Source: Synechococcales cyanobacterium PMM_0072 (lineage in GTDB: Bacteria; Cyanobacteriota; Cyanobacteriia; Cyanobacteriales; Chamaesiphonaceae). From it: DNA of 50,372 bases. The notes under the pieces are model-generated. The model did not search any database. It had not been told where the DNA came from and saw only the letters and a list, made by a program, of their open reading frames with translations. The stretch lies in contig CASBPY010000191.1 in assembly GCA_949127675.1 (NCBI GenBank), forward strand, positions 1-50,372, in the 5' to 3' direction. Both the position numbers and the translations under genes were made by a program. Below are positions 34,998 through 41,957 of this stretch, piece by piece; position 1 is the first letter of the stretch; each line of letters begins with the position of its first letter.

Positions 34998-35780
34998 TTA
35001 GATAGTACCTGTAATTACTTTTTGCCCCGTTGGTTCGAGTGGATCGTTAGGTCGATCTATGGTGATAAATACACCTTTAGCTTTAACTCCTGGTGGGGGA
35101 TTTTGTTTAGCATTTAGCTTAATAAATATGCTACCTCCTTCTGTGGTTTTGAATTCACCGCAGGGAATAACTTGACCATTAACTAATTCTAACCACATGC
35201 GATAAACTCGATCGACAGGCAATGGTGGTAAATCTTTCGCAGATACGATTACCTGTTGCCAGTTTCCAGGTGTAAATAAAATTTTGCCAAGCACTCGATC
35301 TTGCCGATCACTCAAAGCAAGTAACCGACTTTTGGGTTGAGTCAAAAGACTTGCTAATTCCTGCTGATCAACCTGTTGAGCGAATTGTAGTTGCTGACGT
35401 AGATTAAAATTATCAAATGATACCAATCCACCTATTAATAGTCCAATACCTACTAATAGCCTGCTCCAATTAAATCTTTTCGTAGGTACTAACGTTGCTT
35501 CAGGGACAGCTATTTGTGGCAGATTAACGGTCGAATTTGAGTTCGATTCTATAGCAACAAAAGATTCGATGATTTTAGCTTTTAATCCTGGAGGGGGAGT
35601 GATTTGGGGCAGTCCCTGAGGCACTTGATTGAAAGCAATTTCGAGCGCATGTACCTCAGCGCGAAGATCGGGATTTGTAGTCAGTGCAAGCTCAAATTCC
35701 TGACTTTCGATCGGATCTAAATCGCCTAATACATAACCAGCAGCTAGCATTTTCTCCTCTTCTGAAATAGATCTAACCAT
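34998..35780 (-). CDS. Anti-sigma factor, RskA type
   Basis: N-terminal AAGYVLGDL...PPPGLK anti-sigma domain, one TM helix, C-terminal LPPLP...YRMW...PTG. Confidence 0.85.
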   Translation of the reverse strand: MVRSISEEEKMLAAGYVLGDLDPIESQEFELALTTNPDLRAEVHALEIAFNQVPQGLPQITPPPGLKAKIIESFVAIESNSNSTVNLPQIAVPEATLVPTKRFNWSRLLVGIGLLIGGLVSFDNFNLRQQLQFAQQVDQQELASLLTQPKSRLLALSDRQDRVLGKILFTPGNWQQVIVSAKDLPPLPVDRVYRMWLELVNGQVIPCGEFKTTEGGSIFIKLNAKQNPPPGVKAKGVFITIDRPNDPLEPTGQKVITGTI

Positions 35781-35791
35781 AATTCTCTCCT

Positions 35792-36358
35792 TTACCCAAT
35801 CTGCGATTGCAACAGTTGCCGTAATTTTATTAATCCCTGCCGCATGTGAGTTTTAACAGTACCTAATGGTAAGTTGATTTGCGCGGCGATCGCTGATTGG
35901 CTCAGATTTTGATAATAACTTAATTCGAGGACTTGTCTTTGTTGGTCGCTCAATGTGGACAAAGACTGACGCACGATGATTTGTTCTTCTGCTAATGTTA
36001 ATGAGTCTAGGGGAGTAGGTAAGTCAGTTTCAGGAATGATACTTTGTTGCAATCTTTGGAGAGATTTTTGTTGGCTCTGACGACTCCGCAACCGATCAAT
36101 CGCCCTCGATCTAGTCAGTAAACATAGATAGCTGCTTAACTTAGCACGATTTGGATCGAATTTATCCTGTTTCCAAAAGCTCAAAAATACATCTTGGGTG
36201 AGATCTTCGGCTTCATCACGACGATCTAGCAAATTCAAGGCTAAAGTATATACTAATCCGCCATAGCGATCGTAAAGAATGCTCAAGGCTGTTTGATTAC
36301 CTTGGCGCAAACTAACGATTAAGTTAGCATCAGTAGTGTCAGCAGAAATTTGACTCAT
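35792..36358 (-). CDS. ECF RNA polymerase sigma factor (SigK-like)
   Basis: LYDRY, AEDLTQDVF, RSRAIDRLR, LPLGTVKT; 11 bp upstream of the anti-sigma gene. Confidence 0.92.
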   Translation of the reverse strand: MSQISADTTDANLIVSLRQGNQTALSILYDRYGGLVYTLALNLLDRRDEAEDLTQDVFLSFWKQDKFDPNRAKLSSYLCLLTRSRAIDRLRSRQSQQKSLQRLQQSIIPETDLPTPLDSLTLAEEQIIVRQSLSTLSDQQRQVLELSYYQNLSQSAIAAQINLPLGTVKTHMRQGLIKLRQLLQSQIG

Positions 36359-36603
36359 CTAACCAGTCCTGGCTAAATCATAGACTGGGTAAATTATAGC
36401 TTTATTATAGAATATATCTATGTATTAATAATAACTTTCATGACGATTTCATTATGATATGAGTACTCAGCAATTATCAATTCGGAACTATTTGGCGACA
36501 TCTGAGCAATCTAGCAAAACATCGAAAATTCTAAACATCTCTTGAATTAATGGTTCCAGAACTATGAAATTTTGAATTTGTAATTGTTGACAAATATAGC
36601 TAT

Positions 36604-37116
36604 TTATTGACAAGCATCACTAGAAGTAGTTAATAATTTTTTACCTGCGTCGTTATACAATCTACCATCCTGTCCTAAACCCAATACAGATTGTTGTTTT
36701 TCTCCCGCGCTACTAAGAAATTCGATCGCAACTACAGATTGATTTGATTCGATAATTTTCCAGGTGCCGATACTACTATTTCTACCGCTACCACCTGCAC
36801 TAGCCCCTGTGACATCGACTGATAATGAACTTTGGGCAGCATAGGCAAATCGTCCGTTACTACAGAAATGCAATTCCTTCTTGCTGCTCATTCCACCGCC
36901 ACCATAACCGGAAGAATAGCTGGAAAATTCGACAATTTTACGCCCACCTAAATATTGCTGCCACTGTTGATTGGTTTGTTTGCTAGCAGTGGCTGGCTGG
37001 ATACCGATCGAAATCGTGCCAGAGAAGCTTGGATCGGCTAATTGCACGAGCGCAGTAGATAGGAGGGCGATACTACTAAAACCAAATAATTTACGCAACA
37101 TAATTTTACTCATCAT
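36604..37116 (-). CDS. Hypothetical secreted Gly/Ser-rich beta protein
   Basis: Basic/hydrophobic N-terminus, two Cys, GTWKI strand; no family recognised. Confidence 0.6.
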   Translation of the reverse strand: MMSKIMLRKLFGFSSIALLSTALVQLADPSFSGTISIGIQPATASKQTNQQWQQYLGGRKIVEFSSYSSGYGGGGMSSKKELHFCSNGRFAYAAQSSLSVDVTGASAGGSGRNSSIGTWKIIESNQSVVAIEFLSSAGEKQQSVLGLGQDGRLYNDAGKKLLTTSSDACQ

Positions 37117-37132
37117 TTTTTGCTGTTGTCAT

Positions 37133-37161
37133 TAGTACGCAAGTGCAAGCAGATTAGATTT
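37133..37161 (-). promoter_or_regulatory. Candidate ECF promoter AAATCT-N16-CGTACTA
   Basis: Minus strand aaatct aatctgcttgcacttg cgtacta, just upstream of the 36604..37116 gene. Confidence 0.65.
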
Positions 37162-39854: not shown

Positions 39855-40355
39855 ATGCCAAAATACACCGATCAAGCAACAAGTACTCTCATGATATCGA
39901 TGGGTGTTTTGACCCTTGGTTATTCACCATTAGTCATAGCTCAGCAAAGTTTCAGAGATTTACCTATTCGGGATAGTCAAATTGCGCTGGTTGCCAATAA
40001 ATCTATCTGTCAAAATACGTTGAGAACGGTCAGATCTCAGTTGGGGCTAGTCAAATCGGTTAAAATCAACCGAATTACTGCTGTTTCTGGTAAGTATCCG
40101 CGTGGTCGATCGATGGTAGCTGACTTGACAATTGTTAATAACAATCCTCGATCAGAACAACTGATTAACTCTTCATCCAAACTATTAGCCGCCAGTCAAA
40201 AAATCACAAAAAATTGTGCGAATATTGGCATAGTTCAATTTTATATAGACCAAACCGATAATGGTGTGGTCTATGGGTTGATTAACGGGCGGATGAAGCA
40301 GTTTACTTGTAATAATGAAACGTCGATTAAATGGGGTGAGGTTATGTGCCCTTAG
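39855..40355 (+). CDS. Hypothetical secreted protein with four Cys
   Basis: Signal-like N-terminus (..VIA/QQ), basic mature part; family not recognised. Confidence 0.6.
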   Translation: MPKYTDQATSTLMISMGVLTLGYSPLVIAQQSFRDLPIRDSQIALVANKSICQNTLRTVRSQLGLVKSVKINRITAVSGKYPRGRSMVADLTIVNNNPRSEQLINSSSKLLAASQKITKNCANIGIVQFYIDQTDNGVVYGLINGRMKQFTCNNETSIKWGEVMCP

Positions 40356-40414
40356 TCACCATCGATTTTGAATAAATTATGGCGATCCTTCTAATTAATA
40401 ATTAGTAGTGAATA

Positions 40415-40680
40415 GGTAATGTTGTGAATCTGTGGAAAGCAGGTTAAAAGACGCAGCCAAATTCAAATCGATTGATGAATAAACCAATCACAGTATCGTG
40501 CATCACAACAGATTTAGAAAATCAGATAGTTCTGCACGCTAGCCGTTTGATTCTAATCCGAAGTGTGAGATGTTTGCGCTCGATTGTTTGAGTATTAATC
40601 TTGCCAATTGTATGTTCATTTGGGTCGAGGTGACGTTGATATGCACCCCAAGCATCTATATAAAATTGCTTGATACCCCG
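40415..40680 (-). mobile_element. IS1-family remnant: 3' part of the InsB transposase with an internal stop, plus one terminal inverted repeat
   Basis: Minus-strand translation GIKQFYIDAWGAYQRHL...GKINTQTIERKHLTLRIRIKRLACRTI*FSKSVVMHDTVIGLFINRFEFG; IS1-type end GGTAATG at 40415. Confidence 0.88.
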
Positions 40681-40694
40681 ACTCTTCTTTTCAT

Positions 40695-41867
40695 TCAGTT
40701 CTCAACTAATTTAAAACTTGCCAAAATACATCCCCCGGCAACAATAAAGCCGAGCGATGCGAGGATGGCACCTAAGACTGGAGTTAAATTACTGACTGGA
40801 TTAAACACCGAACTAAAGGAACTAATTCCAGCACTAAAACCACCAAAATAAAGTCCAACGGCTAAACCAGATCGATCGGCAGGAAAAGTATTGATCGCAA
40901 ATGGAATAGCCCCATTAGTCACCCAACTTAAACAGATCGTAATTAGGAGCACCGCAATAGCAATTGTAATGTAACTTGGTAAAAATACGCTTGTTAATAA
41001 TGCAAGTGAAGTCGCCCCAATCCCCATTAACATTAATCGTTGATTACCATATTTAGCAGCTAATAATCCACCTGGGAGAGCAGAGATCGCAATTGCTAAC
41101 GAAATGACCACCATCGTTAGCACAGGATCTAGCTGTGGAACATGAAGCTTGAAGACTTTCGGCAGAGTTTCTAATAAACAGCGTACGCCCCAAGCAATTC
41201 CGAAGCCCGTAACGAGTAACAAACCAACTTTAAGCGGTACAATTGGTTGACGCTTATTTACTAACAAAGGATCATCCATCCCAGGATCAAAATAGCGTAA
41301 TAGCCCCGTAGCTGCCAATAAAACTACCGAACCAATCGTAAAGGCAGTTGGTGCGCCGAGACTAAGAATAAAATCTTGAGATACAGGTCGCATCGACCCC
41401 ACAAATCCACCAACTAGAGTCAGAAAACTCGTCGCAATTGGTAATTCACTGGCAAAAGCATATCTACCAACTAATGAAATTGCTGGCGTGCGAAATACAC
41501 TCATCGCCATCGCCCACGCAACTAATACCCCTGGCAAAATCCAGTTTATCGCACTAAATAGATCACGAAAAACAAAGATTGTCGGAATTAAAACCGAGAT
41601 TGCTGAAGTTAAAATTACACCCAGAGACACAATCCCAAATTTAGTCGCTACCCACCGATAGGCTCGATCAGACAAACTCCCAAATAATGGTTCTAAAATT
41701 ACGGCAATCGCATTTTCTACAATTAATAACGAAACAGCTAATGCTGGGGCAAAGCCATATCCAATTAATAGTTTTGGCAGGTAAATATTGTAAATTAGCC
41801 ATGTCAGCGAAATCGCCCCTTGTAAGGCAGATAAACCAATGATTTTGTACCAGCTTGCATTTAACAT
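40695..41867 (-). CDS. MFS transporter
   Basis: EPLFGSLSDR motif A; about 12 hydrophobic segments; start probably ATG 41867. Confidence 0.85.
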   Translation of the reverse strand: MLNASWYKIIGLSALQGAISLTWLIYNIYLPKLLIGYGFAPALAVSLLIVENAIAVILEPLFGSLSDRAYRWVATKFGIVSLGVILTSAISVLIPTIFVFRDLFSAINWILPGVLVAWAMAMSVFRTPAISLVGRYAFASELPIATSFLTLVGGFVGSMRPVSQDFILSLGAPTAFTIGSVVLLAATGLLRYFDPGMDDPLLVNKRQPIVPLKVGLLLVTGFGIAWGVRCLLETLPKVFKLHVPQLDPVLTMVVISLAIAISALPGGLLAAKYGNQRLMLMGIGATSLALLTSVFLPSYITIAIAVLLITICLSWVTNGAIPFAINTFPADRSGLAVGLYFGGFSAGISSFSSVFNPVSNLTPVLGAILASLGFIVAGGCILASFKLVEN

Positions 41868-41928
41868 ATCTTTTCTCAAGTATCACTAACACCAATCGAA
41901 GCATCTCCACGCAGAGAGCACCTCCTTA

Positions 41929-41957
41929 TAGTACGGAGCTGAATGAAGATCGGATTT
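41929..41957 (-). promoter_or_regulatory. Candidate ECF promoter AAATCC-N16-CGTACTA
   Basis: Minus strand aaatcc gatcttcattcagctc cgtacta, upstream of the MFS gene. Confidence 0.65.

Follow-up and report, generated by a model that had tools for sequence, protein, structure and literature searches.

Why would a free-living cyanobacterium keep genes for two different secreted phospholipases beside an extracytoplasmic function (ECF) sigma factor? The question is raised by a block of about 7 kb, here called the island, in contig CASBPY010000191.1 of Synechococcales cyanobacterium PMM_0072, a stretch of 50,372 nt that is referred to as the window. The island carries a sigma/anti-sigma pair, a gene for a predicted phospholipase A2 (PLA2) fused to a domain resembling domain 4 (D4) of the cytolysins (open reading frame (ORF) 37411), and a gene for a predicted lectin-bearing sphingomyelinase D (SMase D)/lysophospholipase D (ORF 38369). 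A sequence-only reading of the window had listed an ECF sigma gene, a gene for a transmembrane anti-sigma factor, four ORFs with signal-like N-termini, a major facilitator superfamily (MFS) transporter, an IS1 scar and three copies of a bipartite motif, and all of these were found in place (Table 1). From comparisons of sequences, structure models and gene neighbourhoods, we lean toward the view that the island would mount, under ECF induction and without harm to the producer, a joint attack by its two enzymes on eukaryotic neighbours (protist grazers, fungi, algae) whose membranes contain sterols and sphingolipids.

The source genome (G000; 2.92 Mb, 83% complete) was examined along with a genus comparison set of 27 genomes; labels such as G015 and G010 denote individual genomes, and L-numbers denote loci. 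Deposited close relatives of the island proteins carry the label Chamaesiphon sp., and the source run is a microbial mat.

Two predicted secreted phospholipases with different folds

ORF 37411 starts with a basic/hydrophobic, signal-like N-terminus, a property that was judged throughout by the 15-residue Kyte-Doolittle peak; the peaks of ORFs 36604, 37411, 38369 and 39855 lie between 1.65 and 1.97 and start at residues 8-14. Neither Pfam and NCBIfam nor a single-sequence PDB search returned a match for ORF 37411, and its structure model (predicted local distance difference test (pLDDT) score 81) comprises two domains. Cytolysins fill the top Foldseek rows for this model. The similarity is confined to residues 200-294, pore-forming domains 1-3 not being matched, and this segment aligned with pneumolysin D4 at a VIA Z of 11.3 (root-mean-square deviation (rmsd) 1.9 Å, 92 residues aligned), far above unrelated rows; the Z values for three cytolysin D4 domains were 11.3, 11.2 and 10.7. 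The D4-like domain shares with perfringolysin O and pneumolysin the Thr-Leu of loop 1 (G284-T285-T286-L287), the Ala-Tyr-Val of loop 2 (A212-Y213-V214) and the Glu-Cys that opens the signature loop (E258-C259), which match perfringolysin O T490-L491, A401, V403, E458 and C459. Of these, T490-L491, A401, V403 and E458 form the sterol-contact surface (PMC11416283, PMC5744101; these and most papers cited below by PMC number are drawn on through excerpts), and weaker binding to ergosterol and stigmasterol is described (PMC5744101, excerpt). Thr and Leu of the motif occur in 23 and 25, respectively, of the 30 alignment rows, two rows being gapped. In contrast to the cytolysins, ORF 37411 has a shorter signature loop, has lost three Trp and has no pore-forming domains, and it is not a cytolysin.

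The preceding domain (residues 53-190) matched the PLA2 of Tuber borchii (4aup) with a VIA Z of 7.3 (rmsd 3.5, 96 aligned), which is below the safe range. H120, D121, D157 and D100, which include the His-Asp dyad, are invariant in all 30 rows and follow the pattern of group XIV PLA2, whose signature is a His/Asp dyad plus an Asp beside the His (PMC11525133, excerpt). Phospholip_A2_3 of Pfam was matched by 11 of the 90 proteins scanned among 141 profile hits, in six cases above the cut-off. The dyad and adjacent Asp are shared with the group XIV enzymes of Streptomyces violaceoruber and T. borchii (TbSP1) and with Salmonella TtaP, which likewise lies within a small toxin islet (PMC11525133, excerpt); ORF 37411 differs in its fusion to a D4-like domain, in having at most one disulfide and in its inserted beta-hairpins. 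The model suggests a PLA2-like fold with intact catalytic residues in a predicted secreted phospholipase.

For ORF 38369, the ricin-B part of the structure model is unreliable (pLDDT <50). The D domain is modelled as a TIM barrel, closest to the phospholipases D (PLDs) of Arcanobacterium and spiders, and matched the Arcanobacterium enzyme (PDB 9yd8) with an E of 2.5e-5 by sequence and 6e-13 by fold. In Foldseek, SMases D occupy the first eight rows, with E values between 6e-13 and 5e-11, and the first glycerophosphodiester phosphodiesterase (GDPD) follows at E 1.5e-6; there is a short beta-alpha-1 loop, as seen in an ungapped alignment to 1xx1, and no GDPD-insert domain. Alignment to 9yd8 showed a complete catalytic set of two His and three acidic Mg ligands: H202, H243, E223 and D225 are kept in 24 of 25 rows (the other is a fragment) and D277 in all 25, while K279 and W392 are also conserved. 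In the C-terminal plug motif, Ala and Asp-Asn-x-Phe are present and Arg and Pro are replaced; several relatives retain Arg/Lys and Pro. ORF 38369 is accordingly predicted, on sequence and fold, to be a secreted SMase D/lyso-PLD-type enzyme with intact catalytic residues. Enzymes of this class cyclise sphingolipids and lysophospholipids and barely touch diacyl phosphatidylcholine (PC) (PMC6024514, PMC3756997, PMC13079978; excerpts).

[quoted passage not shown] With those members the island enzyme shares a short beta-alpha-1 loop, a short Cys-free catalytic loop, a signal-like peptide and extra domains; it differs in its divergent plug motif and in its ricin-B fusion and cyanobacterial host, neither of which appears in the excerpted main text of that paper. 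Full-domain SMase D matches were present in three of 401 cyanobacterial genomes. L160 and L161 (G270 and G046, other cyanobacteria) hold an SMase-D-like gene with PLAT domains and no signal-like N-terminus, adjoined by a stand-alone PLAT gene and a gene for a 1,200-aa protein.

HMM and structure searches thus bore out the earlier proposal of two different phospholipases, each with a binding module. The catalytic parts are members of known families or resemble them. No prior description of the PLA2-D4 architecture, of its pairing with an SMase D under an ECF promoter, or of the promoter itself was found in searches of an open-access paper library.

A sigma/anti-sigma pair and its probable promoter

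The regulatory pair has a SigK/RskA-like layout, with a sigma factor of regions 2 and 4 followed by a single-pass RskA-type anti-sigma factor whose only hydrophobic segment starts at residue 108. It shares these components, and a small regulon of nearby secreted proteins, with mycobacterial SigK-RskA (mpt70/mpt83), and differs in being a mobile module with swappable cargo and other outputs. The island sigma has one Cys and so lacks a redox pair, including the one that marks ECF18/ECF19 sigma factors (PMC7826278, excerpt).

The motif AAATC-N17-CGTACTA has exactly three matches in the G000 genome, all in the island and each directed into a gene. The same three sites, and no others above 16 bits, were recovered with a weight matrix derived from 17 sites that lie in other genomes. 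Across the 27 genus genomes, which are kin and therefore do not give independent counts, AAATCY-N16-CGTACTA matched 38 times versus five times for the reversed control, and 29 of the 38 matches fall in the eight genomes with a close ortholog of the island sigma. Such orthologs (79-91% identity) occur at eight other loci, each of which has one to four motif copies; G015 has a site almost identical to promoter 2 before the same gene, and in G042, G012 and G003 the motif lies upstream of the sigma gene itself. None of five loci with a paralogous sigma has the same motif form, and three of them have GATCC for AATCC with the -10 element unchanged. Its shape, its spacing, where it lies and the way it co-varies with the sigma factor make AAATC-N17-CGTACTA very likely the cognate promoter of the island sigma, and promoter 2 is predicted to drive the three-gene run 37411-40355. 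The motif distribution thus supports the co-regulation that the sequence-only reading had assumed. A second ECF sigma in G000 (40% identity) may show cross-talk with the motif, and scans for sigma-70 promoters and terminators yielded chance-level matches only.

The motif offers a sharp tag for locating more secreted cargo in the genus. At L059, L061 and L062, which hold a paralogous sigma clade (46-48% identical), GATCC-N16-CGTACTA stands before small secreted cargo of their own.

The island is an insertion

The block of about 7 kb that carries the sigma pair and the lipase genes is an insertion. DNA similarity of G018, G008, G013 and G006 to the window ends at 34863-34871 and restarts at 42047-42082, and in these genomes, whose PurA is 95-98% identical to that of the window, about 170-210 nt separate purA from the ORF 42090 ortholog. 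This empty site was present at four of 11 loci examined, the remaining seven having different neighbours. The same direct join, 34863 to 42082, is made in contigs from X2 and X4, two runs of one study. The island has a G+C content of 0.41 versus 0.444 and contains nine CGATCG sites versus 21 expected, a depletion equalled in four of 262 equal-sized genome windows. Misassembly was rejected, as contigs of X1, a run that may itself stem from the source sample, span all 30 bins at even depth; the one difference is a 74-nt stretch (about 39225-39298) that is not among the X1 pieces listed. At the left edge, a 68-nt stretch (34932-35000) has at least six matches of about 80% in G011 and a single copy in G000, and possibly marks where a mobile element ends.

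A possible attack on eukaryotic membranes

In the mechanism that we propose, an outside signal would free the sigma factor from its RskA-type partner, and the freed sigma would transcribe 37411-38369-39855, the MFS gene and ORF 36604, with possible read-through into the sigma gene. Both enzymes would exit via Sec and then by an outer-membrane route. The SMase D enzyme, held at the target surface by ricin-B (PLAT in relatives), would strip choline or ethanolamine from sphingolipids and so expose sterol, on which the D4-like domain would dock the PLA2. PLA2 action yields lysophospholipids, and these would lyse the bilayer and be acted on in turn by the D enzyme.

An immunity gene would be dispensable, since the producer itself appears devoid of sterols, hopanoids and choline/ethanolamine phospholipids. 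Squalene cyclase was not found in any of the five genomes searched, among them the 83% complete G000, and a single CDP-alcohol transferase is present in four of the five, G000 included. Phosphatidylglycerol (PG) is, to our knowledge, the sole cyanobacterial phospholipid. With no cyclic triterpenoid target of the producer's own in sight, the earlier claim that immunity is dispensable is supported, and self-safety is plausible on genomic grounds; a hopanoid as D4 ligand was rejected on the same squalene cyclase result.

The closest precedent is Arcanobacterium haemolyticum, in which a GDPD-like SMase D is paired with a protein that docks via a cytolysin D4. Its PLD cleaves sphingomyelin and lyso-PC, PC barely, and boosts membrane binding and lysis by the D4-bearing cytolysin arcanolysin (PMC6024514, excerpt). 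In contrast to that pair, the island D4 bears a PLA2 instead of pore domains 1-3, one ECF-type promoter precedes the two neighbouring genes, a lectin or PLAT module is joined to the D enzyme, and the organism is a phototroph that lives freely.

How stable is the gene combination?

In G015, the genes for the anti-sigma, the sigma and ORFs 36604, 37411, 38369 and 39855 keep their order at a different site, where transposase remnants flank them, and the D enzyme carries PLAT in place of ricin-B. The co-occurrence in related genomes that the sequence-only reading called for was thus found by neighbourhood comparison, and the lipase gene pair and its order are common to two species at 84% and 67% identity. 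Equal contig sizes (5428, 3717, 4047 and 3203) are an indirect sign that four further PLA2/PLD protein pairs are probably on shared contigs. D4-type cargo lies directly behind the promoter in four of eight genomes (G000, G015, G010 and G012). At other loci, the sigma module carries the MFS gene, relatives of ORF 36604 or 39855, an outer-membrane barrel pair or small secreted proteins without a Pfam match. The barrel pair, found beside the same sigma at L053-L056 (G015, G020, G013, G003) and L166 (G042), consists of a predicted outer-membrane barrel of 730-780 aa and a secreted-type protein of 400-450 aa, with no firm Pfam match.

Several results weigh against the attack that we propose. Both lipase genes occur in the same two of 27 genus genomes and at two of the nine loci of the island sigma, where the steadier cargo is the MFS gene, small proteins of no known family and the barrel pair. 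Outside Chamaesiphon, the partner gene did not appear at any of seven PLA2 loci or at any of 19 loci of the D enzyme, many of them on short contigs. The island contains no gene for an outer-membrane exporter, and the barrel of other sigma loci was not found in G000. In the PLA2 domain, the fold match is middling, the only Cys are C102 and C117, leaving one of the two group XIV disulfides possible, and Trp takes the place of the Tyr after His-Asp among the Chamaesiphon copies. Instead of the cytolysin loop ECTGLAWEWWR, the D4-like domain has the shortened ECWAVAGR. In some profile hits, D4-type matches are combined with peptidases (papain, astacin or reprolysin), metallophosphoesterases, phosphatidylinositol-specific phospholipase C (PI-PLC) or MACPF. 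Non-toxin members have been proposed in the family of the D enzyme (PMC6299612, excerpt).

Two earlier claims held in part. The D4 fold and its Thr-Leu support the idea of targeting modules, whereas the absent loop Trp, the presence of the module on peptidases and the exchange of ricin-B for PLAT do not. Sterol binding by the D4-like domain is likely, not established, given the missing Trp and the peptidase fusions; because D4-type modules occur without PLA2 and on peptidases and metallophosphoesterases, the module may instead be a general surface anchor. Likewise, the lipases are present in what had been taken for a dedicated lipase island, whereas the neighbourhoods suggest that the sigma module is a mobile, general carrier of variable secreted cargo, with the lipase pair as one interchangeable load.

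Alternative explanations

The regulon might encode nutritional exoenzymes that digest the lipids of eukaryotic cells in the mat, whether these are dead or act as hosts, with no selection for antagonism; the MFS protein would import choline, ethanolamine or lysolipid, and ORF 36604 would carry fatty acids. The mat origin of the source run, the steady membership of the MFS gene in the regulon and a weak lipocalin lead for ORF 36604 fit this account, as do the D4-type, PLAT, ricin and tectonin modules that adorn many secreted hydrolases of heterotrophs. Against it, the MFS gene and ORF 36604 also occur in loci without lipases, and phosphate scavenging, which the sequence-only reading had entertained, is a weak proposal because, after cleavage by an enzyme of the D class, the phosphate stays on a cyclic lipid (PMC3756997, excerpt); the D enzyme alone would free none, and the island has no phosphatase. 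Control is through an ECF pair, and the patchy, swappable cargo suits conflict genes; we regard a purely nutritional role as unlikely. A target among bacteria appears more improbable still. Here the PLA2 would cut PG, phosphatidylethanolamine and PC of neighbours, the D enzyme would act on lysolipids or on sphingolipids of bacteria, with the D4-like domain as a sterol-independent anchor, for antibacterial action or biofilm remodelling. Bacterial sphingolipids and PC do exist, the Trp-rich loop is lost and the module is promiscuous; the D enzyme family also accepts ethanolamine lipids (PMC13079978, excerpt). Thr-Leu is nevertheless retained in most rows, and no immunity-like gene is tied to the lipases: ORFs 36604 and 39855 were rejected as immunity genes because both occur without lipases. 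Such a gene is missing even though the producer itself has PG, a substrate of the PLA2 in such an attack.

The island might finally be an envelope-stress regulon acting on the producer's own surface or sheath, with the lipases as recently captured passengers and no selected pair. The regulons of SigK/RskA-type pairs are small groups of secreted proteins whose function is unclear (PMC4105308, excerpt), and near-identical promoter copies stand before three unrelated cargo genes, so cargo capture would be easy. The pair and its order are, however, kept between the two species despite the change of binding module, the active sites are intact, and the D enzyme has no apparent self substrate; we give this explanation very little credence.

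Among these explanations, the attack on eukaryotic membranes remains the one that we favour. A broader version can be put forward tentatively at best, and we are inclined to doubt it as a whole: a phototroph's inducible anti-eukaryote weapon, one output of a mobile ECF module with a readable promoter, in which a pore-less cytolysin sterol domain aims a PLA2 and an SMase D of spider-venom type primes a feed-forward loop, and which belongs to a so far undescribed family of D4-like modules carried by secreted hydrolases of bacteria in the environment, a possible source of the cytolysin D4. Cyanobacterial defence against grazers and parasites is discussed mostly in terms of small molecules. The island is a defined protein system with a switch and a promoter, and is therefore directly inducible and testable.

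Spread of the PLA2-D4 fusion and of D4-type modules

Proteins with the PLA2-D4 fusion form a small family, in which a single query gave 31 homologs, hosted by Chamaesiphon, Blastocatellia and an alphaproteobacterium. Both domains are present in 30 of the 141 profile-hit representatives, and 74 are D4-type without PLA2. Extra domains in the family are ricin-B, PLAT and hemopexin, or another domain of D4 type; none among the relatives gathered joins PLA2 or D4 to a D enzyme. D4-type domains occur in three of 401 cyanobacterial genomes. A second C-terminal domain type ('WGTIF') had an hhalign probability of 1% against D4 alone, and its own profile matched no cytolysin. We cautiously call it D4-type because a mixed profile matched D4 (E 5e-5) and one BLAST alignment spans both types. 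With the fusion and its relatives, the membrane-binding domain of the cytolysins is no longer confined to pore-forming toxins, and new lipid probes could result.

In Blastocatellia (L065-L067), PLA2-D4 genes with a second D4-type domain stand in clusters that hold either tectonin proteins or a PI-PLC-like gene and that follow a two-component system with a propeller sensor; at L067 a second PLA2 copy is broken over two frames. Secreted-type proteins of 320-325 aa at L163:6702-7670 (G010), L057:154-1131 (G012) and L162:8497-9459 (G203) combine a Gly/Ala-rich hydrophobic hairpin with a C-terminal D4-type domain, have no Pfam match and are candidate membrane-inserting proteins; in G010 and G012 their genes sit behind a promoter almost identical to that of the PLA2 gene. 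Small D4-type proteins, stand-alone or pentapeptide-fused, are encoded at L147 and L148 (G010), L054:11292-11732 (G020) and L063:6622-7332 (G004). In the deposited protein P0031, the final 55 residues of the D4-like domain are fused with an IS3-type integrase; the contig of P0031 and that of the PLD relative P0051 are equally long, which suggests an insertion sequence-interrupted copy of the lipase pair.

Other genes of the island and its surroundings

Table 1. Positions and strands of island features in the window, with the evidence for each.
Position	Strand	Feature	Evidence or remark
34870..42050	.	Inserted island	Borders approximate, within ~30 nt; similarity breaks in four relatives
34998..35780	-	RskA-type single-pass anti-sigma, 260 aa	RskA_C at residues 117-252, Pfam E 1e-10
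35792..36358	-	ECF sigma, 188 aa, PRK12519 / SigK-like	NCBIfam 244.6 bits vs cut-off 222
36604..37116	-	Secreted-type protein, no known family, 170 aa	Same direction as sigma gene and upstream of it; promoter 1 in front
37133..37161	-	Predicted ECF promoter 1	16 nt before ORF 36604; motif and weight matrix
37249..37277	+	Predicted ECF promoter 2	133 nt before ORF 37411; motif and weight matrix
37411..38301	+	Signal-like peptide, group-XIV-like PLA2 (~53-190), cytolysin domain-4-like beta-sandwich (200-294); predicted	Model, fold matches, conservation
38369..39727	+	Signal-like peptide, ricin-B trefoil (43-170), GDPD-like SMase D/lyso-PLD (~194-452); predicted	Ricin_B_lectin E 4e-20; PDB 9yd8
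39855..40355	+	Secreted-type cyanobacterial protein, no known family, 166 aa	Third gene of run
40358..40692	-	IS1 transposase remnant	Stops nearby; abuts MFS stop codon; 40525-40692 DDE_Tnp_IS1 E 2e-11
40695..41879	-	MFS transporter, likely start ATG 41867	MFS_1 E 8e-18
41929..41957	-	Predicted ECF promoter 3	Before MFS gene; motif and weight matrix

ORFs 36604 and 39855 had no match in Pfam and NCBIfam, and PADLOC gave no match for the six proteins tested. Relatives of ORF 36604 occur in four of the 27 genus genomes, always beside the sigma gene and also without lipases; none of its 18 homologs is named, and an Atlas match to a lipocalin (0.81) is a lead only. ORF 39855 has relatives in six of the 27, one of which, in G010, lies directly behind a promoter copy without lipases. 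A single-sequence PDB search gave no match for the MFS protein; its orthologs in G013, G006 and G042 (65-72% identity) stand behind the same promoter. To the right of the island, 42090-44056 encodes a 259-aa protein with a weak DUF4384 match, an allophycocyanin-like protein and a DUF2656 protein, in a gene order that is kept across the genus and is divergent from purA at the empty site.

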